Shown: positions 6,649-37,392, counted from the stretch's first letter. The stretch: 64,000 nt of DNA from Candidatus Hydrothermarchaeum profundi (GCA_002011125.2 MTMF02000009.1:396006-460005); one strand, 5' to 3'. Notes: generated by a model not told the origin, from the sequence alone. Program-made: numbers and translations.

Positions 6649-6748
6649 TCTACTTTAAAATGAGAAAACTGCCATAAACAAGGTTAGCAGATCAAAGAAA
6701 ATAGATGCTAAAATTAAAACTTTATATCAAAAAAACAATTTTTTATAT

Positions 6749-7882
6749 ATGGCTACTCCGGAAGATCGTATCCTCCTACTACTTGCTATTAAAGAAAAAG
6801 GTAAAAGAATAAACTTTGAACACATCGCTGAAAAAGTTATCAGAGACGAGCAAGGGAAGATATCTGAAAAAGAAGTTAAAGAAACCCTAGAAGAACTCTT
6901 AAAAAAACAAATGGTCTCTGAGAAAAATAGAATGTATGCAATTACGGAGAAAGGCAGAGCTACAATTTTAGAAAAGCTTAAAGACATTGAAAATGAGCTA
7001 AATTTATCATATCGCCGGGTACTAGTGGCAAAAGACTACTATCCCTCAGTTGCAGAGGCTATGGTTCCATATTTAAAAGAGAGAGCTACGAGTACTGTAA
7101 AAGTTTTCAGCGACGAAAAAGACCCTTTTAATAATCTAAAACCCCTTTTCGTAAGATATTCCAGATATAAGCCTAAAAAAACCCCTATAATAATCGAAAC
7201 TGTAGACGAACTACTTAGATATGTAAACGCTCATGCGATTGATTTCATACCCTATGTGCATAAGCTTAACTCCTCTGAGCCAGATTGGCTTATACTAGAC
7301 CTAGATGCTGGTTTAGAATTCAGACGGCATGAGAAAGGTTTTGATCTGGTGAAATTAGCTGCAAAGAAAGTTATAGAAGTCCTAGAATACCACGAGATAA
7401 CACCGTGTATAAAATTTTCAGGATCTAGAGGTATACAGATATGGGCCGCACTAGATAACGGCAAATTACCGCCAGGAGACAAATTTGCTCAATATAGGAA
7501 TCTTGCTATAGTTATACAAAGAATGACCGAACAAGCAATACAGGACTCAGATGTCGCAGACGAATTTTATCAAATTACAAAGAAAAATAAGCCTATAACA
7601 ACCTCCACAGTCGCCAAGAAAGAAGAGAGGGCAGATCAAATCCTAATAGACTGGAGTAGCATGAAACCAAATGGGGATGTAAGAGCCCCTTTCAGCATTC
7701 ACTATAAAACAGGACTTGTATCCTGTCCAATCAGCAAACATCATCTCATAGACTTTAAAATAAGCGAGGCAGAACCTAAAACTGTGGCTGAAAATATAAA
7801 TAAACTAAGAAAAGACTTCGAGATTGTAAAATCAGATCCAAGTCTATTATGTAGAGCTAGCCGGTTTGCTACCTTGGAATAA
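6749..7882 (+). CDS. LigD PolDom-like archaeo-eukaryotic primase-polymerase with N-terminal winged-helix
   Basis: AEP motifs PDWLILDLD, KFSGSRGIQI, ILID..RAPFS; N-terminal wHTH ending YAITEKGR. Confidence 0.78.
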   Translation: MATPEDRILLLLAIKEKGKRINFEHIAEKVIRDEQGKISEKEVKETLEELLKKQMVSEKNRMYAITEKGRATILEKLKDIENELNLSYRRVLVAKDYYPSVAEAMVPYLKERATSTVKVFSDEKDPFNNLKPLFVRYSRYKPKKTPIIIETVDELLRYVNAHAIDFIPYVHKLNSSEPDWLILDLDAGLEFRRHEKGFDLVKLAAKKVIEVLEYHEITPCIKFSGSRGIQIWAALDNGKLPPGDKFAQYRNLAIVIQRMTEQAIQDSDVADEFYQITKKNKPITTSTVAKKEERADQILIDWSSMKPNGDVRAPFSIHYKTGLVSCPISKHHLIDFKISEAEPKTVAENINKLRKDFEIVKSDPSLLCRASRFATLE

Positions 7883-7911: not shown

Positions 7912-9102
7912 TTATTCGTATCTCAAAGCCTCAACCGGATCTAGCTTGGCCGCTTTCCATGCAGGGTATGCTCCAGAGGCACTTCCTACAATAATAGAAA
8001 AAATAAGAGCTCCTATAAGCACTGTAACAGAAACATATGTTTCAAATAATGTACCAATGTAAAACTGACCGATTTCCTCTATCATCTTCGAAGTAACGAG
8101 ACCAAAAATTATCCCAACAGCCCCTCCAACAAGCCCTACAAGAGAAGATTCCGCAAGAAATACGCCTAGAATGCGGTAGTTAGTCGCACCCGTTGCCTTC
8201 ATTATACCTATCTCTCGAGTCCTCTCAATTACGCTCATTAACATAGTATTCATTATTATTACCCCCCCTACCAAAAGAGAAACCGAGGCAATTCCTCCGA
8301 GAACGAAAGTTAATATATCTAAAACCTGATTTATTTGCCCAGCTTGGTCTTCTGTAGTTAAGACCTCAAAATCTTTTCCTCCTCTAAGTTTTTTAAGGCG
8401 CTCTTCAATTTTTTTCGAAACTTCCCCTACTACGCCTTTACTGTCTGCTTGAACCATTATAAAATTAATATCATCCCCAACGTCAAAAAGTGACTGCGCA
8501 GCCTTTATCGACATATAAATCTGAGAATCATCTGGCTTTGACCCTATCTCCTCGATGATTCCAGTTACTCTAAACTTTTTACCGCTTATCTCTAGGTAAT
8601 CTCCTACCCTAATTTCTTTTTCAAACATCCCTTTTGAAACATAATAACCTATAAACACCGCCTCTGTCTCGGTTTCATCAATATATCGGCCTTCTTTCAA
8701 TGTAAGAAACTCACGATAAAGTTCTATTCCTTCTTCTGTCCCCCCTATTATGTTCGCAGTTACCTCTTCAGTACCCACTTTAACCTTTGCTGATGCGAAA
8801 TACATAGGAGCTACTTTTTTAACCCCTGGAATAGTATTTATCTCTCTCAGCTCAGCATTGCCGAAGGGTACGAATTCTTTTGGAGGCCCAAAGCCTCCTC
8901 CAAAAAATCCCGCTGGTGAAACATATATCTTATCGGCTCCAACCTTGTCAAGCTGTTCATTTACTGTCCTCCTCATACCCTCACCAATAGAAATCATAGC
9001 CACAATTACCGCAATACCTATAACAATGCCTGATAGAGTAAGAAAAGTTCTAGACTTCCTTTGAACCATATTCCTAAACGAATACTTTATGTACTCGATC
9101 AT
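7912..9102 (-). CDS. MacB/FtsX-type ABC permease
   Basis: RTFLTLSGIVIG, SVIERTREIGIMKATGA, AAKLDPVEALRYE. Confidence 0.93.
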   Translation of the reverse strand: MIEYIKYSFRNMVQRKSRTFLTLSGIVIGIAVIVAMISIGEGMRRTVNEQLDKVGADKIYVSPAGFFGGGFGPPKEFVPFGNAELREINTIPGVKKVAPMYFASAKVKVGTEEVTANIIGGTEEGIELYREFLTLKEGRYIDETETEAVFIGYYVSKGMFEKEIRVGDYLEISGKKFRVTGIIEEIGSKPDDSQIYMSIKAAQSLFDVGDDINFIMVQADSKGVVGEVSKKIEERLKKLRGGKDFEVLTTEDQAGQINQVLDILTFVLGGIASVSLLVGGVIIMNTMLMSVIERTREIGIMKATGATNYRILGVFLAESSLVGLVGGAVGIIFGLVTSKMIEEIGQFYIGTLFETYVSVTVLIGALIFSIIVGSASGAYPAWKAAKLDPVEALRYE

Positions 9103-10280
9103 GCTCTGAGAGCCTCCACTGGATCCAATTTTACGGCCTTATACGCGGGATATAAACCAGAGATAACGCCAGCTAATATAGCAAAGCTAATAGCATAGAA
9201 TGCCAAGCTAGGGGTTACCGCGGTAGTCAAAACACCTGGGCCCAAATAGTTTTCAGCTAGCTCATTTATAATTGTAGAGATAATGTAACCTATCAAAACT
9301 CCTATCATACCTCCAAAAAATCCAAAAACCCCTGATTCGAAGAGAAATATTCTCATTACTTGAGAATTAGTAGCCCCAGTTGCTTTCATTATACCTATTT
9401 CCTGGGTCCTTTCAACTACGTTCATAATCATTGTATTGGCTATGCCTATACCCCCAACAATCAAAGATACTCCAGCTATACCTCCAAATACGACCTGGAT
9501 TACTTTTAGCGAAGACGATATGGCATTAATCAGTTGCTGGGAGGTAAATACATCGAACTCCACCCCTTCATGGCGTCTTTCAAGACTGTCTTCTATTTTT
9601 TGACGGACTTCGTCCACATCATAACCTGGTTTTACCCTTACGACTATTGCTGTTACACTTTTTTCTCTCCCCATGAGTTCCCTTAACTTATCTATGTTAA
9701 CCATTACAGCTTCATCATGTTCTGGATCTCCAGTTTCTTTAAAAATACCTACAACACGGAATTTTTCTCCTTGGATTTTTATGCTGTTTCCGAGCTCTAC
9801 TTTACTTTTAAAAAAATCGTCATGAACTCTATAACCCAAGACAACTACATTTCGGTCTCCTGGCTCGAGCCATCTACCTTTAAGGAGGCGGTATCCCCCG
9901 ACATCAGAAAAAGTTCGTTCTGCTTTACCGGGATCTAAACCCCATACAGTTATGACCTTTTCTTCACCCTTAAATTCGCCTCCTGCAGCAACACTATACA
10001 TAGGGGAAACAAACTCCACACCCACTATATCCTCAATATTCGAAACATCGCCATCAGTTAAGCCTTTTCCTCTTACCCCATATTCCATCGTAGAAGTAAC
10101 GAGTATTTTATTGGTGCCAAACGCCTCAAACTGTTCCCTTACAGCCTTTGTCATGCCTTCCCCAATAGACACCATCGAAACTACAGCTGTTATACCGATA
10201 ATTACACCAAGTGTTGTAAGAATAGCCCTAGCTTTTCTATAAGATAAATTTTTTAAGGAAAGCTCTATATATTGCAACAT
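9099..10280 (-). CDS. MacB/FtsX-type ABC permease (paralog)
   Basis: ERTQEIGIMKATGA, YPAYKAVKLDPVEALR. Confidence 0.93.
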   Translation of the reverse strand: MLQYIELSLKNLSYRKARAILTTLGVIIGITAVVSMVSIGEGMTKAVREQFEAFGTNKILVTSTMEYGVRGKGLTDGDVSNIEDIVGVEFVSPMYSVAAGGEFKGEEKVITVWGLDPGKAERTFSDVGGYRLLKGRWLEPGDRNVVVLGYRVHDDFFKSKVELGNSIKIQGEKFRVVGIFKETGDPEHDEAVMVNIDKLRELMGREKSVTAIVVRVKPGYDVDEVRQKIEDSLERRHEGVEFDVFTSQQLINAISSSLKVIQVVFGGIAGVSLIVGGIGIANTMIMNVVERTQEIGIMKATGATNSQVMRIFLFESGVFGFFGGMIGVLIGYIISTIINELAENYLGPGVLTTAVTPSLAFYAISFAILAGVISGLYPAYKAVKLDPVEALRA

Positions 10281-10286
10281 CTCACT

Positions 10287-10964
10287 TCAGCCTACGATCC
10301 TCCCATCCCTGATTTTTATTATAGTGTTTGCTCGCTTACCAAATTCCCTCTCATGCGTTACCAACACGATCGTCTTACCTCTCTCATTGAGTTCTTCTAA
10401 AATTCTCATAATACCTTCACCAGACTTAGTATCCAGATTACCAGTTGGCTCGTCAGCCAAAATTATTTCCGGATCATTCCCAAGAGCTCTAGCGATGCAA
10501 ACCCTCTGCCTTTCTCCACCTGAAAGTTCTGTTGGCCGATGCTTCATTCGGTCGCCTAAACCCACGAGTTTTAGAAGTTCCGCAGCTCTTTTCACTCTTT
10601 GGACTTTAGGCACTCCTGCAAACCACATGGGGAGCTCTACGTTTTCGATAGCTGTAAGACGAGGTATTAAATTGAATTGTTGAAATACGAAGCCTATTTT
10701 CTCTCTGCGAATTCTCGCTAGAGAATTATCTGACAGTTTCGAAATATCTCTTCCCTCAATGAAAACCCTTCCTTTCGTTGGCCTATCCAAAGCTCCAATC
10801 AAATTCATCAAAGTGCTTTTCCCGCTCCCAGAGGGCCCCATAATCGAAACATAATCACCCTTTTCAATAGAAAGGTTTATACCTCGTAAAGCCGGCACTT
10901 TGACACGATCCATGAGATAAGTCTTTTCAACTCCTTCGAGTCTCACTATATCCAAACCTTTCAC
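10287..10964 (-). CDS. ABC ATP-binding protein (LolD/MacB family)
   Basis: GPSGSGKST, LSGGERQRV, ILADEPTGNLD, VTH. Confidence 0.95.
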   Translation of the reverse strand: MKGLDIVRLEGVEKTYLMDRVKVPALRGINLSIEKGDYVSIMGPSGSGKSTLMNLIGALDRPTKGRVFIEGRDISKLSDNSLARIRREKIGFVFQQFNLIPRLTAIENVELPMWFAGVPKVQRVKRAAELLKLVGLGDRMKHRPTELSGGERQRVCIARALGNDPEIILADEPTGNLDTKSGEGIMRILEELNERGKTIVLVTHEREFGKRANTIIKIRDGRIVG

Positions 10965-12175
10965 CCTTCAATAACTTGCGATGCTGCCTTCTTATATCTC
11001 CAGACTACAACTAAAATAAGCGCAAGAATTATCAGAGGCACAGCTATGTAGTAAACTTTTTTCCGTGGAGGCTCGTCCACATAAATGCTAAATGTCTTCG
11101 TATCGTAGAATTCGTCTCCTTTTTCATCGGTATAAACAATCTTCATTTTAAAAGTGTGGTCTCCGGGCGCTACTGATTTAGTAGCTCTAAGGTCAAATAT
11201 ACCTGAAGACACATCGTCCACTTCAATCTTGCCTATAAAGGACGAAAATTCTCCGACAAACCCTTCAGTATTCGAAATCGTCGCCATAACTGATTTAGCA
11301 TCTTGGGTGCCAATATTTTCCAATTGCACAGAGAGAGTAAAATCAGTTCCAGGATAAATCTTAGATGGAGAGGTACTTATCCCCGCTATCTCTAAATCAA
11401 CATCACCATACGAGCTAACAAAAATCTGAAAGGGTCTTTCAACCTTTTTTAGAACTCCTTCTTCATTATAATAAATCAATATAAGAGTGAAATCATAAGC
11501 CCTACTTTCCGCTTTCTTTGATGCTTTGAGGTCAAAAGAGAGAGAAACTTTTTTGTCTTTCTCCAATGTGCCTATATACCCCGATCCTTCCCCAGAAAAC
11601 TCCTCAGGCATAACAAGTCTGGCTTCAACAGCTTTTGCATCCTCATCTCCTATATTCTCAACACCTAAAACTAGAGAGAACTCCTGATCAGGATATACTC
11701 GTTCCGGGGAAGTATTGACCCCTGCTATAACCAGATTTGGCTCCCCTTCTACTATAACACCTACGTAGATTATTTGACTCTTTTCTTCCTTCCTAGCGTC
11801 TTCCCAATTTAATACTATCGGAATTTGATATGCCCCTATTGCAGCATTATCTTTTACCTTGACTTGATATTGTAGTATTAACTCATCACTTTGCCTTACA
11901 ACTCCGAAATACTCCATTGATTCTACAGCGCCAGCTGCTTTCCCTAAAAACTTCTTAGGCGACGATAGCGCTGTGAACGGAGATGTTCCGTCAGGGTCAA
12001 ATGAAGCCCGAAGATATGCGGCATAATCTGTTCCCAGATTCTTTATCGTTATATTCACCGTCACAATTTCTCCAGGATAAACCTTATCCGGAGAAACGTT
12101 CATAACATAAAAGTCAGCAGTCGAGGCAGATACTATGGGAACCATAAGAAGTACAATGAAAAACCATTCTTTCAT
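10961..12175 (-). CDS. COG1361 S-layer/CARDB-domain protein, partner of the ABC exporter
   Basis: Signal peptide, three Ig-like repeats (SP..YPG...N.G...AK.V), C-terminal TM; ATGA overlap with padR. Confidence 0.85.
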   Translation of the reverse strand: MKEWFFIVLLMVPIVSASTADFYVMNVSPDKVYPGEIVTVNITIKNLGTDYAAYLRASFDPDGTSPFTALSSPKKFLGKAAGAVESMEYFGVVRQSDELILQYQVKVKDNAAIGAYQIPIVLNWEDARKEEKSQIIYVGVIVEGEPNLVIAGVNTSPERVYPDQEFSLVLGVENIGDEDAKAVEARLVMPEEFSGEGSGYIGTLEKDKKVSLSFDLKASKKAESRAYDFTLILIYYNEEGVLKKVERPFQIFVSSYGDVDLEIAGISTSPSKIYPGTDFTLSVQLENIGTQDAKSVMATISNTEGFVGEFSSFIGKIEVDDVSSGIFDLRATKSVAPGDHTFKMKIVYTDEKGDEFYDTKTFSIYVDEPPRKKVYYIAVPLIILALILVVVWRYKKAASQVIEG

Positions 12176-12687
12176 TTCCATTCCTCCAAAATTTTATTTA
12201 ACCATTTTATTTCGGTCTCTGCATGCATTATCCCCCTCTCTAACGCAGCCAGTTTAAACCTCGGCAAACTCTCCTTACATTCCGTTCTCGTCTTCAAAAG
12301 TTCATCGAGCAAATCTACGTTACCTTTAAGTTTTTCTTCGAAAAGACTTTTCTCCACACCGTCATCCAAATAGTCCAGCAAGAAAAGATGTAGAGTAAAT
12401 TCATCTCTCACGTGGGGTTCTTTTTTTATCCTTGATTTTAAAATTCTGACAAACTCGTTTCTACCCTCCTCTGTAATCTCGTATATTATCTTCCCAACCG
12501 TTTTTGATAGCTCTTTTCTACTTTTAACTAAGCCAGCTTCTTCTAGTTTTTTAAGGGTAGGGTAGATAGATCCAAAATTTATCATCCAAAATACACCTTT
12601 GCTTAGCTCAAAAAAACGCTTCATTTCATAGCCGTGCATTGGCTTTTCCATCAATGCTCCAAGAATACAGAGTTTTGCAAGAGACAT
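12172..12687 (-). CDS. PadR family transcriptional regulator
   Basis: ILGAL..PMHGYE, GSIYPTLKKLE, YEITEEGR. Confidence 0.93.
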   Translation of the reverse strand: MSLAKLCILGALMEKPMHGYEMKRFFELSKGVFWMINFGSIYPTLKKLEEAGLVKSRKELSKTVGKIIYEITEEGRNEFVRILKSRIKKEPHVRDEFTLHLFLLDYLDDGVEKSLFEEKLKGNVDLLDELLKTRTECKESLPRFKLAALERGIMHAETEIKWLNKILEEWK

Positions 12688-15748: not shown

Positions 15749-17020
15749 TTAAAGACCAAAAAGTTCAGATAACGTCTTTCCTTTCTTTATAGCCTCCTTG
15801 TACCTCTTTTCTTTTTTGGCAATCTCTTTTGATTTTTGTAATATCTCATAGGCTTTCTCTTTTGGCACAACGACGACGCCAACCTCATCAGCTACTATTA
15901 TATCTCCTCTTTTTACTGGTACACCGCAACAACTTATTTCACACCCAATCTCGCCATGACCATGCGGCTCGCCAGCATTTGGAACAAAATATTTTGCCCA
16001 TAGCGGGAATCCTAACTCCCTAATGTCATCTATATCCCTAGCTGCTCCATCTACTATTACTCCCCTTACTCCCTTCCTTTTTGCACTAAGAGTCGCAAGC
16101 TCCCCCCAAACAGCTATCTCAGCTCCTTGAGCATCTACCACTATAATATCTCCCTCCTCCGCTAAGTCGACTGCCTTAACCACCTTACCCCAGTCCCCAC
16201 CTAATGTTCTAACAGTTAAAGCTTTTCCAGCAACTCTTACCTCCTTTAATAAAGGCTTCAATCCTCGCATAGCACCAAATCTTTTCATGGCATCTGAGAT
16301 GAATGGTGTCGGAATCCCTTCAAAATCTTTAAGAATATCCTCGAATGAAGGCTCTTTCTCCTCTACCTTTTCAGTCCTTACTCCTATAGCTTTGCAGAGT
16401 TTTCTTACAGTTAATGTAACATCCTTTGCCTTGGTAACAGCTCTGCCCACCACAAAGATCTCAACACCCGCTTCTTTTAAAAATGGCGCTGTCTCTACGC
16501 TAATTCCGCCAGCCGCCGCAATAGGTATTCTAACCACTTTTTTAAGTTTTATAATCTCATCTAAAGACGAATTTATTTTCTGTGCTTTCACTTTCTGGAT
16601 ATCGACCGGAGAATGGATAAGAATATAGTCAACGCCAAGGGTCTCTACTTCTTTTGCACGTTTAATCTTGTTTTTAACGCCTATTAGATCGGCCATTATT
16701 TTTATACCATGTGCCCTAGCTGAATTTACTGCTCTTTTTATCGTAAAATCATCAGCAAGCGCTAAGATGGAAACGATATCAGCTCCGTTTTTAGCAGCTA
16801 TTTCAACTTCAAGGTCCCCTGTGTCCATAGTTTTCATATCTGCGACTATAACCTCATTTGGGAAATTATATCTCAGAGTTTTTACAGCCGCCATCCCATG
16901 ATTCTTTATAAGTGGAGTGCCCACTTCAAGCCATTGTGCTCCTCCTTTTACTGCTTCCTCGGATATAGTTATAGCGTCCTCAATCGAAAGTAGGTCCAAA
17001 GCTATTTGAAGGACCGGCAT
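15749..17020 (-). CDS. Hexulose-6-phosphate synthase fused to an RraA/HMG-aldolase-like domain
   Basis: LQIALD, EVGTPLIK, ADMKTMDTG; C-terminal ISDAM, AVWGEL, DGAARD, GDIIVADE. Confidence 0.9.
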   Translation of the reverse strand: MPVLQIALDLLSIEDAITISEEAVKGGAQWLEVGTPLIKNHGMAAVKTLRYNFPNEVIVADMKTMDTGDLEVEIAAKNGADIVSILALADDFTIKRAVNSARAHGIKIMADLIGVKNKIKRAKEVETLGVDYILIHSPVDIQKVKAQKINSSLDEIIKLKKVVRIPIAAAGGISVETAPFLKEAGVEIFVVGRAVTKAKDVTLTVRKLCKAIGVRTEKVEEKEPSFEDILKDFEGIPTPFISDAMKRFGAMRGLKPLLKEVRVAGKALTVRTLGGDWGKVVKAVDLAEEGDIIVVDAQGAEIAVWGELATLSAKRKGVRGVIVDGAARDIDDIRELGFPLWAKYFVPNAGEPHGHGEIGCEISCCGVPVKRGDIIVADEVGVVVVPKEKAYEILQKSKEIAKKEKRYKEAIKKGKTLSELFGL

Positions 17021-17117
17021 AAATGAGTATCGGTGCACGCTTCTGATAAATTTTTGGGTAGAGAAAACTACTTCCAACTTCTAAAGAAGACCCTATCCGT
17101 AAAGTCTTACGTAGTTT

Positions 17118-18314
17118 TTAGTAGTCAGTCATTATCCTAAACTGATCCACTTCTTCAACTCCCATCTCATGGAGGAAAGCCCTTGCCGCTCCAGTTACGT
17201 CTTTAGCAGCAGTAATCGCCCTTCCAACCACCAGTATATCTGCTCCAGATTTTAAAGCTTCTTTGACTTTATCGACTCTTATACCTCCTGCTACTGCCAC
17301 CAATACTTTGTTATTGCATATTCTTTTAATCTCCTGAATGTTACCCCACTGAGCCTCTTCGCTCTCTTCTACATCTATAGCTCTGTGAAGTTCTACTATA
17401 TCGGGCTTTACTTTTAGGCTCTTTAAAACTTCTATCGGGTCGGCAACATTGAGGGTGTCCATCAAGGAGAGGGCCCCAACCTTCTTACACTCCTCTATGA
17501 ACTTTTCCATAGTCTTTAGTGGAGCGAGTCCTGAAAAACCTATCACGTCAGCAGTTGCATCACCAGCCATTCTAGCCTCAAGATTGCCTGTATCCAAAGT
17601 TTTGAGATCAGCTAAAACAATAGTTTCTGGTCTAAGCTGATGGATTTTCTGCACAACCTCAACACCATACCTCTTTATAAGAGGCGTCCCCGCTTCTATT
17701 ATTATTGCATCTGATCTCGGCAGGGCTCTAATTACTCCTTCAACCCTCCTCCAATCCGGAATATCGAAGGCGACCTCCAGATAGGGTGGTTTTTTCAAAT
17801 TATTTATTCTAAATCCGATCATCGCATGTGCTGCCTTATCTTTTTCCTCTAAAACTGTATCTATACCGGGGAACCTTTCCATAGCTCTTCTTATTGCAAG
17901 CTTTGTGGCTCCATAATTATATCTATAAATCCTTTGGTAGTCTTTACCTCGGGGATGAATAAAAACCGACACTATAATAGCGATTTCTTCTACTTTTTCT
18001 TTTGGTATAATATCTTCCTCAACCGCATCAGCTACTGCTTTAGCGATGGCGCTTTGCGCAGGCCCAAATAGTCTTTCAGCACCTTCCAAATTCCTAATTG
18101 TTACCTTGGGCACAATCAAAGTGGCAGGCTTAACTGGAACATTAGGTCTAACCACAGCTAGGATAGGGGTGTGGCCTTGTCTAGGTTGAGCTAGGGAATT
18201 TGCAAATGCTTGTCCCATTACACCTCTTTTTTCTCCGATTATGAGGTCAATATGCGCTACCTCTGGCTCTTCACCTACTAGAGCTTCTCCTACAAGAAAT
18301 CCTTCCTCAATCAT
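17118..18314 (-). CDS. fae-hps: Bifunctional formaldehyde-activating enzyme / 3-hexulose-6-phosphate synthase
   Basis: [30 protein letters not shown]; [23 protein letters not shown]; C-terminus DQFRIMTDY. Confidence 0.95.
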
Positions 18315-18615
18315 AGTGGTCAATTCTATATTCGTAGCCTTTATCCTTTGCAAACTCAACAAGCTCGCTATCTTGGTGCCATATCCTAATATGGATGAAT
18401 CCAGATCTATCGTCTAGCCCCATTATTTCTCTAACAAAAGTTGGAAAATCCGGAGGGACAACCTTATTTTTCCTTATAAGATAATCAAGATAATCTTTTA
18501 GAAATTCTATCCTTCCTTCATTCCCAGGTTTTTTTAATTTTACCTTTAGTTTCTTATGAAATACACTTTCTTGACCTTCTCTATCAATGCCAGACAAATT
18601 AATCACCGAATTCAA
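18307..18615 (-). CDS. Hypothetical protein coupled to fae-hps
   Basis: Stop overlaps the fae-hps start; start codon uncertain. Confidence 0.55.
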   Translation of the reverse strand: MNSVINLSGIDREGQESVFHKKLKVKLKKPGNEGRIEFLKDYLDYLIRKNKVVPPDFPTFVREIMGLDDRSGFIHIRIWHQDSELVEFAKDKGYEYRIDHYD

Positions 18616-23781: not shown

Positions 23782-25443
23782 TTGGAAATACGCCGATTGG
23801 AAATTTCGTTTTTAATAGTTATATATTTAATAGGATTATACTTTCGTTTGGCACCTAGGCTTGATATCAATCCTCATCTATTAACTTTTCAAGGGGATAT
23901 ATGGTACCGCATATGTATGGCACAGTTCATCTACGACCATAAAGCACTTCCCCACCCAGACATTAGATATTTAGCTTATGGATATGTCCCGATGTGGTAT
24001 CCTCCCCTCTCCCCAATTTTATTCGCACTGGCAAGCTATATATTAAAAATTGATATCCCAACCCTAAGCTCTAGAGTCATTCCTTTTATAGAATCCCTGA
24101 CGCCATTAAGCATTTATTTTCTGGCCAAGTATTTATATAACGAAAAAGTCGCCTTTATTTCTACTTTAGCCCTCGCGCTTACACCTTCTTTTATTTTTTG
24201 GTCAGGCATTTCAGACCCCCAATCCTTCACCCTTTTTATGATCCCTATACTCGTTCTATTATGGGTTGACTACTCTAGAAAGCAAGATATCTTCAAACAG
24301 AAGCGAGATCTTCGCAGGCTAATAGTAATAGGCGTGTTACTAGCATTTAATTTTCTGACGCATTTGTCCTATTTTCTCGAGCTTCTAATACTTTTCATGG
24401 TCACTTTAGCATTGATTGGTATTAGAGAAGCCAAAAAAAGCCTCGTTCTGGATTACTTTTTAGTGCTTGGAATTTCTCAAATTCTTACCGCCCCTTGGTG
24501 GGCTCTAATGGACTCAAAAACACTTTATTGGTGGTGGATTAAAGCCCTTGTAACATCGAGTGGACTATATTCAGCTACAAAACAGCTGAATGAATACGGA
24601 GTTATAGCGGCTATTCTAGGAATTCTTGGATTCATTTATATTACCCACCAATACATATTTCGCCGCAGGCTAAGAAATCTCATAATAATACTTTGGACTA
24701 TTCCTCTCTTTTTAGAGACCCAAAATGAGATAATAATCTCGGGTCTATCGATTGTTACTCCCTCTCTCGCTCATTCTTTAGAATGGTCAACGCTAGGTAA
24801 ACCATTGGAAGGATTTAGATTTTATCCATTCCTAGCGCAACCTATTTCATTAGCAATAGGAGTAGTGGTAACTGATATCGCGGCTAGAATGAATATATCA
24901 CTAAAAAAATCCGGCTACATATTTATTTTTTTGATCATTTCTTTTCTTGCGTGGGGGGTATACTATTATAATCTTGATGTCCGGTTCCAAACCTCAGGGC
25001 TTGTTATAGACGAGTATAATGCGGCTTTGTGGTTTAGGGAGAACTCTGGGCCAAATGATAGAATTATCGCGGACTATTATAGAGCACAGATGTTCGCAGG
25101 GGTCAATGGCGGAAAAGCTCTCTTGGGAGGCATGTTTCCACTTAGAAACTTAGAGTATCCCTATATTAAGGCACCAGGTCAGGTACAAAATGACTTGTAC
25201 GTCCTATACAAAACCTCGGATCCTAAAATAGCTTGGGAGATCGCTAAGAGGTATGGGGCTACTCATATTTTTTACTCTGATAATATGATCAGATACGGTA
25301 ATCTACTATCCTACTACAAACCCGCCAGCCAATACGGAGTAGATATAAGCAAGTCAAAATTTAATGATAACAGATATTTCGAAATTATATACAACTCCCG
25401 CTCGATCTACGGAGAAACTGTTATCGTCAAAGTAAAGGATTAA
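23782..25443 (+). CDS. Multi-TM GT-C-fold (PMT/STT3-like) glycosyltransferase
   Basis: First loop GDIWY, YPPL motif, many TM helices, C-terminal soluble domain with YGATHIF. Confidence 0.7.
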   Translation: MEIRRLEISFLIVIYLIGLYFRLAPRLDINPHLLTFQGDIWYRICMAQFIYDHKALPHPDIRYLAYGYVPMWYPPLSPILFALASYILKIDIPTLSSRVIPFIESLTPLSIYFLAKYLYNEKVAFISTLALALTPSFIFWSGISDPQSFTLFMIPILVLLWVDYSRKQDIFKQKRDLRRLIVIGVLLAFNFLTHLSYFLELLILFMVTLALIGIREAKKSLVLDYFLVLGISQILTAPWWALMDSKTLYWWWIKALVTSSGLYSATKQLNEYGVIAAILGILGFIYITHQYIFRRRLRNLIIILWTIPLFLETQNEIIISGLSIVTPSLAHSLEWSTLGKPLEGFRFYPFLAQPISLAIGVVVTDIAARMNISLKKSGYIFIFLIISFLAWGVYYYNLDVRFQTSGLVIDEYNAALWFRENSGPNDRIIADYYRAQMFAGVNGGKALLGGMFPLRNLEYPYIKAPGQVQNDLYVLYKTSDPKIAWEIAKRYGATHIFYSDNMIRYGNLLSYYKPASQYGVDISKSKFNDNRYFEIIYNSRSIYGETVIVKVKD

Positions 25444-25516: not shown

Positions 25517-28246
25517 ATGGGAGTTTGCCCGAAGTGTGGAGAGCCTATCTCTCCAGATGCAGAGTTTTGCTTGAGTTGTGGATGGAGGATCGTAGAAAAG
25601 GAGAAACCCCAAATAAAAGATTCTGAAGAGGATATAAAATTAATAGAAAAGGGAAAAGAATATATTGAATCCAAAAAGTATGAGAAAGCTTTAGAAAAAT
25701 TTAATGAAGCTTTAAAGCTTAAAAAGAGCCCTGAAGCATTGTTTTATAAGGCATTGACCTTGAAAGAGTGGGGTCTTTCTTTAGGCGATAATAAGAAGCT
25801 TAAATCTTCTCTTGAGATCTTTGCAGAATATGAAGAACTATATCCGCCGGACGCTAAACTGTGGTATAACAGGGGAGTAATTCTCGCTACCCTTGGAAAT
25901 TATAAAAAAGCGGCTGATTGCTATGAAAAGGCGTTAAGACTTGACCCCGGGAATCCTCTATATCGGAGATCATTAGAAACTATTGAAAAGCCTAAGGTGA
26001 GCCACGTAACTGAAAATGAAGGAGCGATTCTTAAAAAGGTGAACCTCTCTGAAAAGTTGGACCTTCCTTTTCCAAAAAATTATGTATGTTTGGTTTCTGG
26101 GCCCCCCGGAGTAGGAAAACATGAATACTGTCTTCAACTCGTAAAAAAATATCTGGAAAAAGGAGAAAACATAGTATACATTACCACAGAGAGATCTCCG
26201 ACAGAAATTAAAAAGATGATGCGCAGGTTAGGAGTCGATATTACCCTCTATGAAGGCAAACGATTTATATTCATTGATATATATTCCCATACAACCGGAG
26301 AGAGATATGAAAAAGCTCTCCGAGTGGATAACCCTGCCAATTTGAATGCTATTAGCGTACAGCTTTCAAAAGCTATTGACATCGTTGGAAAACCGGCGAG
26401 AATATTTTTCGATTCAATTTCTAATCTTTTCCTTTACGCGGCAGAACCAGAGATTAAAAAATTTTTCGGCACCCTTTCATCTAGGATTAAAAGCGAATAC
26501 GGTTTTATCCTTTACACCTTGCAGGAAGATATGCATGATGAAAAAACAGTGATTGCTCTCAAGGCGATGGTAGACGCTGTATTAGAGATGAGATTTGAAG
26601 AAGGTCCTCCACTCAAAAGATATTTCAGAGTACACCATGCCAAAGGGTTAAAAATATCTCCTCAGTGGTATGAGTTCACGATAGAGGAAGACGGAATTAG
26701 GATAGTAACAGAAAAAGTTGTTGAGAAGAAAAAAGTCAAACCTAAAAAAGTATCTACCACCATTATAAAAGCAGGAGTAGTGCTGATAATTTTAATTATT
26801 GGAACTATAGCTTTTCAACTAATTTCACCGGGAACTGAGAAAGAAGCAAGTGAAATTAGATTTGAACCGCCGTCACAACAACAAATCTCTCAACTACAGA
26901 AATGGATAGAGGATAATCCCGGTAAATGGGAAGAATTAAAGGCAAAATATAAAGTGGAAAAGCTTGAGGAACTATCTAAGGAAGAGGCTTCGCAAATAAT
27001 AGAAGAATTCGTTTCTGTATCTATTAACGAGATATACTCATTTTATCCAAATAAAATGGTAAGAATCAATGGAAAAGAGGTACCTGCCTTCATTGAGGTT
27101 AAAAACCGTATTGACCCCAAAGCCCCAAATAAGGGATGGCTCCTTATGGAAACTCCATTCTATAGGATAGAACTTAATCTAGACCATCCCTACTATCTAC
27201 TTAGAGATAAACTAAACAATCGAGATGTTCTCGTATATAACGATACGGTAGAAAACCCTATCGACATGATAACAGGCAGTGACATGGGATTTGCAGACCA
27301 TTCTGGGGAGAATAAGATACAGTGGTCCACGACGGCCTTACACGACTCTGACGGTATTACAAGATATAAGGTTGTTTTCGAAGATAAGAAAAATGGATTC
27401 GTGCTTATTGACACAGAGGGTTGGGATGTGCTCTCCCAAGAGCCTTTCTCTGGTTACGACATAGAAGGAGAAGTAATGTTTGGCTTATTCACTGATAGAC
27501 CATACTTTATCGATGCAACTGAGCTAAACAATTTGCAGGAAATGGGGCTAGCATTACCTAAGAAATTCCGAAACCCGGATGAGATTGTAAAGTCTTGGGT
27601 TCTCAACCCAGAGTACAGCTCAGCTGTGATAAAGGGGGGAGATCCAAATCACCTAAATAGGCGACTTTATGAAGAACTGTATGAGGTAAGGGATGTAGCC
27701 AATGTTGGGAGAAAACCTTACCACTTTGGGTCTACAGCCATATCCAAGATGTTCCCTACACATTACCTTTTCGGAGATAAAAGAAGTTTTGCAATAATTT
27801 TTTCATTGCCTGAAGGAAAATTCAGATGGGACGATTCATTAGGAGTATATGGCGAACAGATAACAGGTGAATTCATATTATATGTGGATAAGCCTCAACC
27901 AGCTGTATCTTTCTCTGTTGAACCTGTCAACGAGCTCGAGTTCCTTTACGATATAAAAGACTTTTCTACCATAGAAGGCTACCAAGAGTCTATGAAAGAA
28001 ATACTCCAGAAATACGGACTAGAGTATCCTGGGGAACCGATTGAATACGATAAGTGGGTTACAAAAAGATTCGCATATGTAATCACATTAACAAAAAACT
28101 GGTATAATCCTGCAACTAATAAGCCGATAGACGAAGCCTGGAACATCGCAGACAAAGGGCTTGAAGACTTTAAAAACTATGAAGACATAATATATAAGCA
28201 GATGGAGGCAACTTTACCACTAGCTTTGATGCTAGCCGGTAGATAA
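25517..28246 (+). CDS. Zn-ribbon/TPR/KaiC(RAD55)-like ATPase/TM/extracellular-domain fusion protein
   Basis: CPKCG..CLSCG; TPRs (WYNRG..L..LGNY..A..CYEKAL.LDP); GPPGVGKH, FFDSIS; Lys-rich stretch then TM at ~26771-26824; ~470-aa C-terminal domain. Confidence 0.85.
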   Translation: MGVCPKCGEPISPDAEFCLSCGWRIVEKEKPQIKDSEEDIKLIEKGKEYIESKKYEKALEKFNEALKLKKSPEALFYKALTLKEWGLSLGDNKKLKSSLEIFAEYEELYPPDAKLWYNRGVILATLGNYKKAADCYEKALRLDPGNPLYRRSLETIEKPKVSHVTENEGAILKKVNLSEKLDLPFPKNYVCLVSGPPGVGKHEYCLQLVKKYLEKGENIVYITTERSPTEIKKMMRRLGVDITLYEGKRFIFIDIYSHTTGERYEKALRVDNPANLNAISVQLSKAIDIVGKPARIFFDSISNLFLYAAEPEIKKFFGTLSSRIKSEYGFILYTLQEDMHDEKTVIALKAMVDAVLEMRFEEGPPLKRYFRVHHAKGLKISPQWYEFTIEEDGIRIVTEKVVEKKKVKPKKVSTTIIKAGVVLIILIIGTIAFQLISPGTEKEASEIRFEPPSQQQISQLQKWIEDNPGKWEELKAKYKVEKLEELSKEEASQIIEEFVSVSINEIYSFYPNKMVRINGKEVPAFIEVKNRIDPKAPNKGWLLMETPFYRIELNLDHPYYLLRDKLNNRDVLVYNDTVENPIDMITGSDMGFADHSGENKIQWSTTALHDSDGITRYKVVFEDKKNGFVLIDTEGWDVLSQEPFSGYDIEGEVMFGLFTDRPYFIDATELNNLQEMGLALPKKFRNPDEIVKSWVLNPEYSSAVIKGGDPNHLNRRLYEELYEVRDVANVGRKPYHFGSTAISKMFPTHYLFGDKRSFAIIFSLPEGKFRWDDSLGVYGEQITGEFILYVDKPQPAVSFSVEPVNELEFLYDIKDFSTIEGYQESMKEILQKYGLEYPGEPIEYDKWVTKRFAYVITLTKNWYNPATNKPIDEAWNIADKGLEDFKNYEDIIYKQMEATLPLALMLAGR

Positions 28247-28269
28247 AAAAATATGAAGTGAGAGAAAGC

Positions 28270-29040
28270 ATGATTGAGAGAACCCCAACCGGTATACCCG
28301 GACTTGATGAAATGTTAAATGGAGGTATCCCCAAAGGGTATACTGTACTAATCGCCGGAGGTCCGGGATCTGGTAAAAGTACCTTCGCAATGCAGGTCTT
28401 AGCTAATGGGGTATCCAAATATGGTGAGAACGGCGTCTATATTTCACTAGAAGAAAGAGCTACTGATATTATTAAAAACTTCTCTCCATTCGGATGGGAT
28501 TTGAGTAAAATAAAAATTATAAGCATGATCCCTCAGAAAGCGAGTCTCGCTAAAGATGTGAAGTATCTAAGCCCTGAGGAAGTGTCTGGTAAAGCTGAAG
28601 AAAAAAATTACCTAGAACTTAATCCTAAAAGATTCTCAGTCGACACAGCTAAAGATGTCATAATTAAAGAAGTAGCAAAAACTAATGCCAAAAGACTTGT
28701 TATAGATTCATTAGCAGGATTTTCAATGCAAATAAATGATCCCTTTGAAATTAGGCAAGAAATTCTAGGTCTTAGCAATCTACTCAATAACTTAGGGTGC
28801 ACCTCATTCCTTCTCACCGAGATGCCAGAAGGCCAAAAAGGCGTAAGTAGATACGGGATGGAAGAATTCATATGCCAGGGAGTCATAGCTTTATATAATA
28901 TAAGGAAAGGCAGTGAACGTGTACGTGGTCTGGAGATACTGAAGATGAGAGGTACTAAGCACAGTCAGAAGATAGTAATGTTAGAGATAGGTCCAAAAGG
29001 AGTTGTCGTCTACCCTGACGAAGAACTATATCGAGAGTAA
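28270..29040 (+). CDS. KaiC/RAD55-like RecA-superfamily ATPase
   Basis: TGIPGLDEML.GG, GGPGSGKST, SLEE, LVIDSL, RGLEILKMRGT. Confidence 0.93.
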   Translation: MIERTPTGIPGLDEMLNGGIPKGYTVLIAGGPGSGKSTFAMQVLANGVSKYGENGVYISLEERATDIIKNFSPFGWDLSKIKIISMIPQKASLAKDVKYLSPEEVSGKAEEKNYLELNPKRFSVDTAKDVIIKEVAKTNAKRLVIDSLAGFSMQINDPFEIRQEILGLSNLLNNLGCTSFLLTEMPEGQKGVSRYGMEEFICQGVIALYNIRKGSERVRGLEILKMRGTKHSQKIVMLEIGPKGVVVYPDEELYRE

Positions 29041-33941: not shown

Positions 33942-34869
33942 AGAAAGAAAAATATATTACTTGGAGGAATGGAAGCCAGAAGACCTACCTACTTTTATAA
34001 CCGATTCACTAGAAATGAGGGAATTTGGCTTTGACTATGATGGCTCTGGTCCTAGAGATAGATACAATCGTTTTACTTCGGTGGCAGATTTAGAAGTTTT
34101 TTTACGAGAAAGGGCTCCATTTTCAGTTTACAACAGCATTTCCTACTATAATGAGCCAGAAAAAAGGAAAGGGTGGATAAAAGCTGAACTTGTCTTTGAT
34201 ATAGACGCTAAGGAAATGGCAATAAAAACTTGTTGTCTAGAAGGCCAGGTTTGTGAAGAGTGTTTAGAAAACGCAAAAAAGATTTCTATGGAAATTACCG
34301 GAATATTGAGAAAAAATTTAGGGCTAAAGAATATTTTCCATGTTTATTCTGGGCGTGGATATCATATCAGGGTATTTGACGATGACCTTATGGAGCAAGG
34401 GTCTGAGGTTCGTGCAGAGATTTTTGAATACGTCAGAGATAGGGTTTATACTCCTCCTGAGCTAATAATTAACCCTCCATCTATTATTTCCAACATGATG
34501 AGAGAAACTATAGAAAAACTAATTTCAAGCGGAACCAGAAATCTTGAAAATATCCCTGGTATTGGTTTTAAAAAAAGTAGAGAATTGTATGAGAGAAAGG
34601 ATGAAATTTTAGATGACTTGGATAGCAATAAAATAACTATTTTAAAAGAGGTTCTTGGAGAAAAATTAACTGAGAGTTTTTTGAACTATTTGTATAAGGC
34701 TCAAATAGCTATATTAGACGCTAAAGTAACAGTGGACATAAAAAGAATATTACGCCTTCCTAGCTCCCTTCATTCTACCGTTAGCATGAAGTGCATGCTG
34801 ATTAAGGACTTGAAAAGCTTTTCACCTTTCAGAGATGCCGTTCCTAGGTTTATGAAGGAGAAATCATGA
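33919..34869 (+). CDS. priS: DNA primase small (catalytic) subunit
   Basis: REFGFD, ELVFDIDAK, YSGRGYHI, D.KVTVDIKRILRLPSSLH. Confidence 0.95.
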   Translation: MLRRATPEERKIYYLEEWKPEDLPTFITDSLEMREFGFDYDGSGPRDRYNRFTSVADLEVFLRERAPFSVYNSISYYNEPEKRKGWIKAELVFDIDAKEMAIKTCCLEGQVCEECLENAKKISMEITGILRKNLGLKNIFHVYSGRGYHIRVFDDDLMEQGSEVRAEIFEYVRDRVYTPPELIINPPSIISNMMRETIEKLISSGTRNLENIPGIGFKKSRELYERKDEILDDLDSNKITILKEVLGEKLTESFLNYLYKAQIAILDAKVTVDIKRILRLPSSLHSTVSMKCMLIKDLKSFSPFRDAVPRFMKEKS

Positions 34870-35807
34870 ACGAAAAAATATTTAAGAGAGATAGCAAAAC
34901 CATCTTATCATTTCTTTTTGCCTTCGCCATCCTTTATCTCCTTATTACTAGAGCAAACTTGAGAGAAACCGTTAGAATAATCTCTAACGCTGACTTAATA
35001 CTTTATCTACTAGCGATCCTATATTTATTTCCCTCTTTTTTAATTCGTAGTTACCGCTGGAAAATCCTATTAGAGAATGTTAGATATACCGGAAAATTAA
35101 GGGACCTGAATGAAGTAGTTGTACTTTCATTTTTCGTTAACTGCATAGTACCCGCCAAAGTAGGGGATATCTACCGTTGCTATTTAATGAAGAAAAACTT
35201 TCAACAATCTATCTCAAAGGTTCTTGGTACTGTATTCGTTGAACGAAGTCTTGACACCATCGGAATAAGTGTTATCTTTCTGTTATCTGCCTTTATGAGC
35301 TTTAGAGTAATACCGGGCAATGTATTGAGGTTAATGGAATTTGGAGTAATTATAACAGTACTATTTATATTGCTGCTTATCTTGCTGAAATACCAAAACA
35401 CCAAAATTGCAAAGTTTATGCCTGGCAAGTCTAGCGAACTTATGCTTAGGTTTGGAGAAGGTGCTTCTGGATCCTTAAAAAGCTCTTCTCTGCCTATGAT
35501 ATCTATAACAACTATCTTCCTCTGGTTACTAGAAGGAGGCAGGTTATTTCTAGTTATGAAATCAATAGGTCTAATTTTACCTTTCGCTATGATACTATTT
35601 GTAGCATTGGCCTCCGCACTAGCTACGGCCTTCCCTCTCACACCTGCCGGACTCGGAGCTGTAGAGCTAGTAATGGCCGGTTTACTTATATTAGTCGGGA
35701 TTAACAAAGATATGGCTGTTTCTGTTGCAATTATGGACCGATTTATAAGCTATTGGTGTATCCTTATTTTAGGAGGGATTATCTATGCCCTCAGTTCTAA
35801 GACATGA
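34866..35807 (+). CDS. UPF0104/LPG-synthase TM (flippase-like, AglD2-like) protein
   Basis: RSYRWKILL, PAKVGD, VFVERSLD, PLTPAGLGAVE, DRFISYW. Confidence 0.88.
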   Translation: MNEKIFKRDSKTILSFLFAFAILYLLITRANLRETVRIISNADLILYLLAILYLFPSFLIRSYRWKILLENVRYTGKLRDLNEVVVLSFFVNCIVPAKVGDIYRCYLMKKNFQQSISKVLGTVFVERSLDTIGISVIFLLSAFMSFRVIPGNVLRLMEFGVIITVLFILLLILLKYQNTKIAKFMPGKSSELMLRFGEGASGSLKSSSLPMISITTIFLWLLEGGRLFLVMKSIGLILPFAMILFVALASALATAFPLTPAGLGAVELVMAGLLILVGINKDMAVSVAIMDRFISYWCILILGGIIYALSSKT

Positions 35808-37392
35808 TATAGCTATTATATCTGCTTTATCCATTATCGGAATAACGCCGCTATTAAAACCTGGATTTTTCGCCTCACATGATATGGCCGCTCCATTATA
35901 TCGCTTATTGGAACTGGATATTTGCCTTAAGTCAGGTGATATCTTTCCTAGGTGGTTTCCAGACCTCTATGGAGGACGAGGAGGTATGTTCTTTAATTTT
36001 TATGCACCTTTATCATATTACGTTGCAGAACTCTTTCATATACTTGGTATAGGCTATATTAACTCGATAAAAGCGGTATATCTTCTTTCTTTCGTTTTCT
36101 CTGGAGTTTTTATGTATCTCTTCGCCCTGGAAAAGACTTCTAGACACGGCGCATTGATTGCGGCAACATTATACATGTATGCTCCATATAGATTTACAGA
36201 TGTTTTTATTAGAGGGGACCTAGCCGAAGCATTTTCTTTTGTTTTCCTACCAATGATTTTGCTATCTATCGAGAGGCTCTCAAAAAATAGCAAAATAGAG
36301 AATATACTTCTATTCGGGTTTTCATATGCAGGATTAATATTAACCCACAATATCACTGCACTTATATTTTCATATTTTATGGTGCCGTATATTATATACG
36401 TCGCTTATAGGAATGTCTTGCTTTATAGAGACATTTTCATTTCTATTATCCTTGCGTTTTCACTTTCAGCCTTTTTTTGGCTCCCTGCAATTGTAGAGAA
36501 AAAGTATGTGAATATCGAAAATGCTATTTTCACTTTTAGTTTTATAGAGTTAAAGAAACTCCTTCCAACGCTCACAAGTTATACCAGTAATCAAGGAGAG
36601 ATGGCTTTTCAGCTGGGCGTATTCCATCTTGCATTTATTTTGATTGCTTTAACCTATTTAAATGAGAAATACGTGAAGTTTATTTTTGCTAATTTAATAG
36701 CTGCTATTTTTATGCTTACCCCTTATTCAACGCCACTTTGGAAAGTCTTACCTCTCACTCAGTATACTCAATTCTCTTGGAGGCTCTTAACTATTACAAC
36801 TCTGCTTGTATCACTCTTAGGAGGGTTATCTACTAAGAGATTTAATCTTTCAGATGCTAGGGTAGCAATTTTATGCCTCGCTATAACGCTTTCATCAATA
36901 AATTTCATCGGGTATTCTGAAAGTCTATCCTTATCAGACGAAGAAATTAATAGGGTAGAGCTACGGAATTTAAACACGGGCTTAACTTATGGGCACGAGT
37001 ATCTTCCTCTAGATGCGGAAATAATCGAGAAACCTATGAGCGAAAAAATTGCACTGCTTGAAGGAAATATCTCGATAAAGGAACTCAAAGAGGATTGTGA
37101 AAAAATATCTTTTAATACGATAGCAAAAGAAGACTCCTTATTACTCATAAACACTTATTGGTTCCCTGGTTGGAGCGTTAAACTTAATGGAGAAAAAATT
37201 AATATTCAAAGCAAAGATGGCTTAATGTTAATCAGAATACCAAAAGGGGAATCCGACGTACTTGTAAAATTTGAGGAAACACGAGTTAGAAAAGTATCTA
37301 ACATAATTTCTATTCTATCTTTTATGACTGCAATAGTGGTTATCTTACGAAAGGGGATAAAGAGTCTAAAGGCATCCAGACTTCCCCATTAA
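35785..37392 (+). CDS. PTPS-related/YfhO-like GT-C membrane protein
   Basis: HD, PRWFPDL..G.G..FNFYAPL, YAPY...D...RGDLAE, THN, AFFWLP, QFSWR, WFPGW. Confidence 0.82.
   Translation: MPSVLRHDIAIISALSIIGITPLLKPGFFASHDMAAPLYRLLELDICLKSGDIFPRWFPDLYGGRGGMFFNFYAPLSYYVAELFHILGIGYINSIKAVYLLSFVFSGVFMYLFALEKTSRHGALIAATLYMYAPYRFTDVFIRGDLAEAFSFVFLPMILLSIERLSKNSKIENILLFGFSYAGLILTHNITALIFSYFMVPYIIYVAYRNVLLYRDIFISIILAFSLSAFFWLPAIVEKKYVNIENAIFTFSFIELKKLLPTLTSYTSNQGEMAFQLGVFHLAFILIALTYLNEKYVKFIFANLIAAIFMLTPYSTPLWKVLPLTQYTQFSWRLLTITTLLVSLLGGLSTKRFNLSDARVAILCLAITLSSINFIGYSESLSLSDEEINRVELRNLNTGLTYGHEYLPLDAEIIEKPMSEKIALLEGNISIKELKEDCEKISFNTIAKEDSLLLINTYWFPGWSVKLNGEKINIQSKDGLMLIRIPKGESDVLVKFEETRVRKVSNIISILSFMTAIVVILRKGIKSLKASRLPH

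Follow-up and report, generated by a model that had tools for sequence, protein, structure and literature searches.

We analysed a window of 64,000 nucleotides (the whole stretch of DNA under study) from Candidatus Hydrothermarchaeum profundi (GCA_002011125.2, MTMF02000009.1:396006-460005), in which a first-pass annotation had proposed a transmembrane receptor built on a KaiC-like pseudo-ATPase and paired with an intact KaiC-like ATPase. At this locus the gene for P0001 (single-pass membrane protein) is followed by the genes for P0002 (stand-alone KaiC-like ATPase) and P0004 (secretion-type hexameric ATPase). The open reading frames (ORFs) of P0001 and P0002 are present on the same strand as claimed. 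P0004, a Tad/FlaI-type ATPase that had been missed, is the third conserved member of the gene module. The features of the locus are listed in Table 1.

Domain organization and topology of P0001

The domains of P0001 are aligned in the order Zn-ribbon, tetratricopeptide repeats (TPR), inactivated KaiC domain (iKaiC), one transmembrane (TM) helix, helical bundle and supersandwich ectodomain. Pfam, hydropathy and the AlphaFold2 (AF2) model thus uphold the order given in the first-pass annotation, which had left the C-terminal part of about 470 aa unassigned. The Pfam match to TPR spans aa 85-151, and the TPR helices at aa 37-155 were modelled with pLDDT >90. In the alignment the Zn-ribbon is kept in the long forms of the family, and the three-helix insert (alignment columns 640-700) is confined to P0001 and its closest relative P0005. 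In the AF2 model of the full-length protein (pLDDT 84.6, pTM 0.52) the domains are confident and the linkers are disordered. No HisKA/HATPase_c, MCPsignal or Pkinase domain was detected in P0001 by Pfam at E <=0.01, indicating that the protein is not of the classical receptor type; aa 440-909 gave no Pfam match. An SD-like aaggtga and a TATA-like ttaaata are located upstream of the gene.

P0001 has a single hydrophobic segment (aa 415-433/437, Kyte-Doolittle 2.52), with 7 K/R in 18 residues on its N-terminal side and a net negative charge on its C-terminal side. One such segment lies between the head and the C-terminal domain in all 28 aligned relatives (28 of the 33 family members were aligned; the architectural near-duplicates P0012, P0014, P0017, P0022 and P0025 were omitted). 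Because a cytoplasmic P-loop head without signal peptide is followed by only one TM helix with a positive N-flank, the approximately 470 C-terminal residues are predicted to lie outside the cell (N-in/C-out), in agreement with the topology proposed before.

An assembly chimera would have undermined this architecture. The KaiC-TM-ectodomain junction is bridged without difference by contigs from another study (25709-27283), the contigs of which also span the ectodomain-KaiC-ATPase stretch without difference. A third study supplies a strain of 97-98% identity in which the junction is spanned as well (26608-27179). With the junction bridged in this way, and with the same domain order present in numerous unrelated assemblies, P0001 is not a chimera. 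The strain from the third study differs by about 2-3% substitutions over the P0001 locus and has one A more at 28244, within the run of A residues at the P0001 stop codon.

Table 1. Features of the P0001 locus and of related operons in the same genome (positions refer to the window, except for those preceded by a locus name)
Feature	Position	Strand	Evidence or remark
P0003, polytopic GT-C-like (PMT_2-like) membrane glycosyltransferase candidate	23782-25443	+	PF13231 E 1.3e-4, below cut-off
P0001, single-pass membrane protein, 909 aa	25517-28246	+	ORF and translation, Pfam, AF2 model
Zn-ribbon (CPKC...CLSC), aa 4-22	25526-25582	+	PF13240 Zn_Ribbon_1, 26.5 bits vs cut-off 25
TPR region, seven helices, aa 37-155	25625-25981	+	TPR_1/TPR_2 E ~1e-15
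Degenerate KaiC/RecA-like domain (iKaiC), aa 185-400	26069-26716	+	PF06745, DUF7504
TM helix, aa 415-437, after Lys-rich stretch	26759-26827	+	Hydropathy, flank charges, model helix 415-435
Small three-helix insert, predicted extracellular, aa 454-499	26876-27013	+	Alignment, model pLDDT ~88-92
Supersandwich domain (ectodomain), predicted extracellular, aa 500-909	27014-28243	+	AF2 model, structure comparison
P0002, stand-alone KaiC-like ATPase, 260 aa	28258-29040	+	PF06745 E 9.5e-67
P0004, Tad/FlaI/GspE-type hexameric secretion ATPase, 499 aa	29041-30540	-	PF00437 E 6.8e-50, PilB3_C
REC-iKaiC operons, own genome	L024:4956-5995 (C9 ~1.553 Mb), L025:4754-6133 (C9 ~1.289 Mb)		207-208-aa degenerate KaiC

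The KaiC-like domain of P0001

The domain at aa 185-400 matches PF06745 with E 6.3e-27 (94.9 bits vs cut-off 26.6) and also DUF7504 (PF24336; 43.1 bits vs cut-off 27). Its model shows the alternating strands and helices of a RecA-like fold, and its best sequence relatives in the PDB are PH0284 (2dr3, 2.6e-12) and SSO2452. It scored below the cut-off of the ArlH equivalog NF052589 (37.2 bits, cut-off 215) and did not match MEDS; for DUF835, only an iKaiC paralog gave a score, of 20 bits vs the cut-off of 33.

The motifs of P0001 are GPPGVGKH, ITTER, FFDS and HHAKG. Conservation of each motif was counted in the 22 of the 28 aligned members that carry iKaiC. The Ser/Thr of Walker A is found in none of the 22, being replaced by H, Y, F, L, K or R, so that the degeneracy noticed in P0001 holds for the family as a whole. 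The Lys of Walker A is kept in 20, and the Asp of Walker B and the first catalytic Glu (Glu225, in ITTE) in all 22. The description as a 'pseudo-ATPase' is weakened by these retained residues. Two further statements need correction in the same sense. TTER had been said to replace LEE; alignments to P0002, PH0284 and SSO2452 place the Glu of TTER on the first Glu of LEE, and only the second Glu of the catalytic pair is lost, to Arg, Lys or Gln in the iKaiC relatives. HHAKG had been said to replace the arginine finger; KMRG is indeed altered, but the Arg is substituted rather than deleted, the position being Lys in 19 and Arg in three relatives.

From these motifs we infer that selection has maintained nucleotide binding but not the Mg-coordinating hydroxyl. 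The fused iKaiC would then be no dead scaffold but a switch that binds nucleotide, probably without hydrolysing it. A comparable behaviour is described in excerpts of PMC8978795 for ArlH, which binds ATP without hydrolysis.

Fold and conservation of the ectodomain

The ectodomain (aa 500-909) was modelled by AF2 from a 32-sequence alignment with pLDDT 92.2 and pTM 0.93. Foldseek, which had been suggested as a check for this part of P0001, connected the model with 3mwx (E 2.6e-7). By VIA-align, the closest structures were 5cd6 (BDI_1685; Z 19.3, 282 residues, rmsd 3.9 A), the GH174 fucanases 8jd7 (Z 19.1) and 9k1g (Z 18.4-18.5), the aldose epimerases 3ty1 (Z 18.2) and 3mwx (Z 18.0), a PL4 lyase (Z 17.5), and accessory domains of GH38 and LacZ (Z ~15-18). 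All of the 50 listed matches are carbohydrate-related proteins or domains, except for two NDH subunits and one capsid protein. As modelled, the C-terminal domain is therefore a galactose-mutarotase-like supersandwich fold, and may bind or act on carbohydrate, although similarity of fold is no proof of function. The known supersandwich proteins with this common fold (aldose 1-epimerases, GH174 endo-1,3-fucanases, PL4/PL26 lyase domains, GH38/LacZ accessory domains and BDI_1685) overlap with the model over 220-300 residues (Z 16-19, rmsd 2.9-5.2 A). Unlike these proteins, the P0001 ectodomain is archaeal, membrane-anchored and, by its predicted topology, extracellular, and it is only 5-13% identical to them. 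For GH174, excerpts of PMC11943901 describe the enzyme activity and give D119, E120 and E218 as the catalytic residues of Fun174A.

A total of 55 columns are invariant in 21 ectodomain sequences, fused and anchor-only, and many of them are Asp, Glu, His, Arg, Tyr or Trp; L011 was left out of this alignment owing to an in-frame stop in its ectodomain frame. By sequence the family stands by itself. No NCBIfam match was obtained for aa 440-909, and the family profile gave no match among PDB sequences at E <=10. A phmmer search of 1.84 billion proteins returned 18 ectodomain representatives at E <=1e-3, all with at least 45% identity and all from its own family. In the ESM Atlas the best score was 0.88 (GH123_N and PcRGLX sandwich clusters), under the 0.9 mark, and these clusters are leads only.

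Conserved linkage with two ATPases

P0002 has all the motifs of an active KaiC (GGPGSGKST, SLEE, IDS and KMRG), and the motifs are invariant in its orthologues of 63-69% identity, confirming that the neighbouring KaiC is intact. Its translation likely starts at the ATG at 28270, and the gene begins 11-23 nt past the stop of P0001. Against the ArlH equivalog NF052589, P0002 remained below the cut-off (38.9 bits, cut-off 215), and no arl genes are present within the 64-kb window. P0004, convergent with and abutting P0002, scored 170.2 bits against PF00437 (cut-off 24.9); its relatives in the PDB are GspE of A. fulgidus (2oap, 9.4e-83), CpaF (4.7e-76) and FlaI (5.9e-53), and its score against the FlaI equivalog NF058587 was below the cut-off (302 bits, cut-off 550). 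An assignment of P0004 as a PINA-like DNA ATPase, prompted by the nearby PCNA and primase genes, was rejected; the PINA model covers only the ATPase core (E 1.5e-6), and the replication genes are not neighbours at other loci.

In 8 of the 11 genomes with an iKaiC-fused ectodomain gene, a P0002-like KaiC gene and a P0004-like ATPase gene are directly adjacent to it (the window, L001, L002, L003, L009, L015, L016 and L047). As to the remaining genomes, the KaiC gene adjoins the fused gene in L022 and is followed by the contig end, the KaiC-ATPase pair is located at the end of another contig in L006/L084, and the pair lies elsewhere in the genome, unlinked from the fused gene, in L021/L089. The KaiC gene keeps its place between the other two but changes strand, sharing the direction of the fused gene at five loci and that of the ATPase gene at three. 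The trio persists at 45-70% protein identity while the flanking genes vary (rhodanese, DsrE/TusA, HisF, PCNA/primase). The gene pair is thus conserved across families and orders, and a lack of conserved pairing, which would have spoken against the proposed partnership, was not observed.

The pair follows the cytoplasmic head. At L045, the product of which consists of Zn-ribbon, TPR, TM, PKD and ectodomain without iKaiC, KaiC and ATPase genes are still found downstream in this order. The pair was detected at none of 14 loci with an ectodomain gene lacking both iKaiC and TPR, within the fetched flanks, several of which are short. Likewise, none of six P0004-like single ATPase genes in ectodomain-free genomes has a KaiC neighbour. 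A MinD/ParA-type ATPase gene is located divergently upstream in L009, L015 and L021.

T2SSF/TadC-like genes were found in this genome at two distant sites only, C9:832719-833911 and ~1277093 (~400 kb and ~850 kb away), where they adjoin other ATPase paralogs. The former belongs to the main pilus-type locus of the genome (C9:829109-833911), at which two tandem Tad/FlaI-type ATPase modules within one frame of 1059 aa are followed by two TadC-like genes; the tandem pair is seen in most relatives.

Family distribution and domain shuffling

A search of 5.8 billion proteins gave 56 matches, 33 of which are family members and 23 of which match the TPR part only, and 23 genomic loci of the family were found in species-representative genomes. 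Among 41 related genomes, including the present one, the ectodomain is encoded in 18, in single copy. The ectodomain is combined with five types of head, including Zn-ribbon plus TPR plus iKaiC (11 of the 28 aligned members), iKaiC alone (another 11, plus one fragment), Zn-ribbon plus TPR without iKaiC (P0032 and L045), double Zn-ribbon (P0033 and P0034), and a short tail with the TM anchor only (P0035 and P0036).

All six of the anchor-only loci scanned adjoin genes for giant Beta_helix/NosD surface proteins, 745-1567 aa in length, in which PKD and TSP3 domains may or may not be present. These loci were found in metagenome-assembled genomes labelled Methanophagales, Methanospirareceae, Bathyarchaeia and others. 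The anchor-only ectodomain and the beta-helix protein may form a separate surface glycan module. L007 and L010, which encode reduced forms, adjoin a gene for a CWB2-domain protein; the Pfam scan of neighbours at reduced-form loci left out nine ORFs around L023.

Some genes of the family depart from the common structure. The ectodomain gene at L011:1114-2292 has an in-frame stop, and that at L023:7694-8469 is split over two frames, being a possible pseudogene or an assembly error. In P0033 (L020:6731-8194) the ectodomain is interrupted by some 85 aa of Ig-like sequence.

Stand-alone iKaiC paralogs and response regulators

The same genome encodes two stand-alone iKaiC paralogs with the motifs GPPGVGKF/R, ITTER/ITSER and HHMKG/HHLKG, which match DUF7504 with 53.3 and 34.6 bits. 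Each is located directly downstream of one or two genes for single-domain REC proteins (response regulators). Two histidine kinase genes, a MinD/ParA ATPase gene and a gene for a 1187-aa surface protein are also present at L024. When 30 iKaiC loci were fetched from the 41 related genomes, one or two REC genes were found next to 17 of the 18 stand-alone iKaiC genes, and next to none of the 12 fused or other iKaiC forms. With its loss of motifs and its REC-adjacent paralogs, the domain of P0001 represents an inactivated KaiC domain in a signalling setting, and the REC linkage favours a signalling role of the iKaiC clade. Members of the clade were also noticed in open frames of 503-716 aa without ectodomain fusion, at L077 (G011:C41), G019:C15 and G003:C57.

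Other genes in the window

The window is archaeal, encoding ABCE1, PCNA and both primase subunits at a G+C content of about 38%. The gene for P0003 lies upstream of P0001, and its orthologue at L001 scored above the PF13231 cut-off (27.7 bits). As a fixed part of the module this GT-C gene was rejected, since L001 and L002 are the only other loci at which it precedes the fused gene. Glycan genes of other kinds are present near the gene at other loci, including polysaccharide deacetylase at L001 and GT2, GT4 and cytidylyltransferase at L021. Within the window, the region 34866-37389 (+) encodes an LPG_synthase_TM-family membrane protein and then a PTPS_related polytopic membrane protein, which together with P0003 place three envelope-modifying membrane enzymes inside 14 kb.

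Three more gene groups of the window were noted. In a single string at 7915-12687 (-), genes for a PadR regulator and a CARDB-domain protein are accompanied by those for an ABC ATPase and two MacB/FtsX-type permeases. An archaeal Nre gene at 5386-7879 is divergent from a LigD-type primase-polymerase gene, the two being likely a DNA-repair pair. Two adjoining fusions at 15752-18362 (-), one of Fae with an OMPdecase/HPS-like domain and one of an OMPdecase/HPS-like with an RraA-like domain, look like genes of the formaldehyde/ribulose-monophosphate pathway.

Discussion

The explanation that we favour, tentatively and at somewhat less than an even chance, is that P0001, P0002 and P0004 form a module in which the state of the ectodomain is passed inward to the pair of KaiC and secretion ATPase. 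P0001 would be a membrane adaptor of type-II orientation, the ectodomain of which would bind, and possibly cleave or isomerise, a carbohydrate polymer of the cell surface. Occupancy or clustering of the ectodomain would be relayed by way of its one TM helix and reach the cytoplasmic iKaiC, which would bind nucleotide and hydrolyse it poorly or not at all. The iKaiC domain, aided by TPR and Zn-ribbon, would dock the active P0002, and P0002 may in turn set the activity of P0004, by analogy with ArlH and ArlI. In this scheme we infer the class of ligand, how the proteins touch each other, which way information flows and the final action of P0004. Outside-in control is preferred on account of the response regulators to which the iKaiC clade is otherwise connected.

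Several points weigh against outside-in control. With a single TM helix per chain, transmission requires oligomerisation, and the scheme assumes this. At L005, L012, L013, L014, L018 and L019 the ectodomain is encoded in anchor-only form; because such forms exist, the ectodomain has a surface function of its own outside the cell, and a pure sensor without output is hard to explain. The ectodomain is also the best-conserved part of P0001, and its invariant Asp, Glu, His and Arg residues, together with the nearest folds (GH174 fucanases, aldose epimerases and PL4/PL26 lyases), suit an enzyme equally well. In addition, no gene for a platform protein (TadC/ArlJ), a pilin or a prepilin peptidase was found in any scanned locus. 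The receptor proposed in the first-pass annotation therefore stands with respect to architecture, topology and gene pair, but a pure receptor is insecure in view of the anchor-only forms.

The opposite direction, which we consider unlikely though the most serious of the rivals, is inside-out control of an effector. The ectodomain would then be a surface glycan enzyme (hydrolase, lyase or epimerase) that is switched, clustered or driven by the KaiC and Tad-type ATPases via the iKaiC/TPR handle. This logic resembles the control of extracellular hydrolases by FtsEX. An ectodomain that acts alone in its anchor-only forms is in agreement with inside-out control, as are the 55 invariant columns, rich in acidic residues, His and Arg, that are common to the fused and the anchor-only forms, and the enzymes with a supersandwich catalytic domain (GH174, aldose 1-epimerases and PL4) among the nearest folds. 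Glycan genes near several of the loci (the window, L001, L002 and L021) and the lack of a platform protein on which P0004 could act point in the same direction. On the other hand, the REC tie of the stand-alone paralogs indicates signal handling and not force, the catalytic residues of the ectodomain cannot be assigned to those of a known enzyme, with no PDB chain similar at E <=10, and mechanical coupling via one TM helix has no citable precedent.

A specific mechanism can be formulated for both directions, in which an iKaiC ring, linked to carbohydrate-binding supersandwich domains through single TM helices, turns the state of a surface or environmental glycan into assembly of the KaiC/Tad-type ATPase stack without a kinase, or in which the stack powers the extracellular glycan enzyme with no polytopic platform protein; we take this mechanism, which would be a new route of crossing the archaeal membrane, to be rather improbable as it stands. 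Either direction, if true, would mean that a secretion-type hexameric ATPase acts on a single-pass partner and not on PilC, TadC or ArlJ.

Still less probable, in our estimate, is a purely structural role. As a scaffold, P0001 would merge the roles of ArlX/ArlH (ring) and ArlF/ArlG (anchor) and hold a stack of P0002 and P0004 at the envelope, in a pilus-like or secretion machine that is tied to the glycosylated envelope and has its other parts encoded elsewhere. Excerpts of PMC8978795 give precedents for such parts in the archaellum motor, where ArlX has a single TM and forms a cytoplasmic ring round ArlH and ArlI, and ArlF/ArlG anchor the motor to the S-layer. The conserved trio of a KaiC-like, a FlaI-like and a single-pass membrane protein is in agreement with a scaffold, as is the upstream MinD/ParA-type ATPase at the three loci named above, since such ATPases accompany loci of type IV pili (T4P) according to parts of PMC4858521. 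A scaffold is less compatible with the missing TadC/ArlJ, pilin and prepilin peptidase genes, with the scores of P0002 and P0004 far under the cut-offs for ArlH and FlaI, and with the occurrence of the ectodomain family without any ATPase context.

Finally, that the neighbours form no functional module, being linked by descent in one order with the fused protein independent of both ATPases, is very improbable: the fused-form loci do belong all to one class and mostly to one order, so that shared ancestry inflates the counts, and the pair of L021/L089 is unlinked from the fused gene, but the trio stays together at its level of identity through inversions of the KaiC gene and among differing flanking genes, and the KaiC-ATPase pair tracks the cytoplasmic head and not the ectodomain.

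Makarova, Galperin and Koonin (mBio, 2017) are said to have proposed hubs of KaiC-like ATPases with iKaiC domains in archaea. As far as parts of the literature on such hubs go, the present trio is alike in the iKaiC beside an intact KaiC, in the linkage to a T4P-type ATPase and in the REC linkage via paralogs; it is unlike them in that the named iKaiC families (MEDS and DUF835) are unmatched and the domain of P0001 fits DUF7504. A similar logic is known from the RsgI anti-sigma factors of cellulolytic clostridia, which are single-pass polysaccharide sensors with enzyme-like ectodomains. P0001 shares with RsgI the arrangement of a head that binds a regulator in the cytoplasm, one TM and an extracellular module of carbohydrate-binding or glycosidase-like type for sensing. 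The two are not homologous, and the partner of RsgI is a sigma factor while that of P0001 would be a KaiC-like and a secretion-type ATPase.

The ingredients of the proposed module are already published as predictions. KaiC-family ATPases are linked to T4P loci of archaea, with their genes beside those of T4P ATPases (excerpts of PMC4858521), and iKaiC domains occur in archaeal signalling proteins (excerpts of PMC5847659). A close known counterpart is the ArlH-ArlI-ArlX set, in which ArlH controls ArlI (excerpts of PMC8978795) and a single-domain KaiC-like protein is likewise combined with a hexameric ATPase of FlaI type and a membrane protein with one TM helix. In contrast to this set, the present trio is without ArlJ, archaellins and ArlF/G, P0002 retains all motifs for hydrolysis, and P0001 carries a KaiC-like domain of its own and a large ectodomain. 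The iKaiC-TM-supersandwich fusion, the new ectodomain family and a trio without platform protein were not found in the literature searched; the 2017 survey of iKaiC domains and its supplements may cover the fusion.

The trio offers a compact test case, combining an ectodomain of carbohydrate type with an iKaiC that retains the residues for nucleotide binding, and adding to them an intact KaiC and a motor ATPase without platform. To our knowledge, few predicted regulators of archaea are as abundant as KaiC-like ATPases, and their signal inputs are almost unknown. If the proposed contacts exist, the trio would reveal the way in which the envelope is coupled to an ATPase machine by an inactivated KaiC, and would also define a new supersandwich carbohydrate family in archaea of hydrothermal and methane-oxidising communities.

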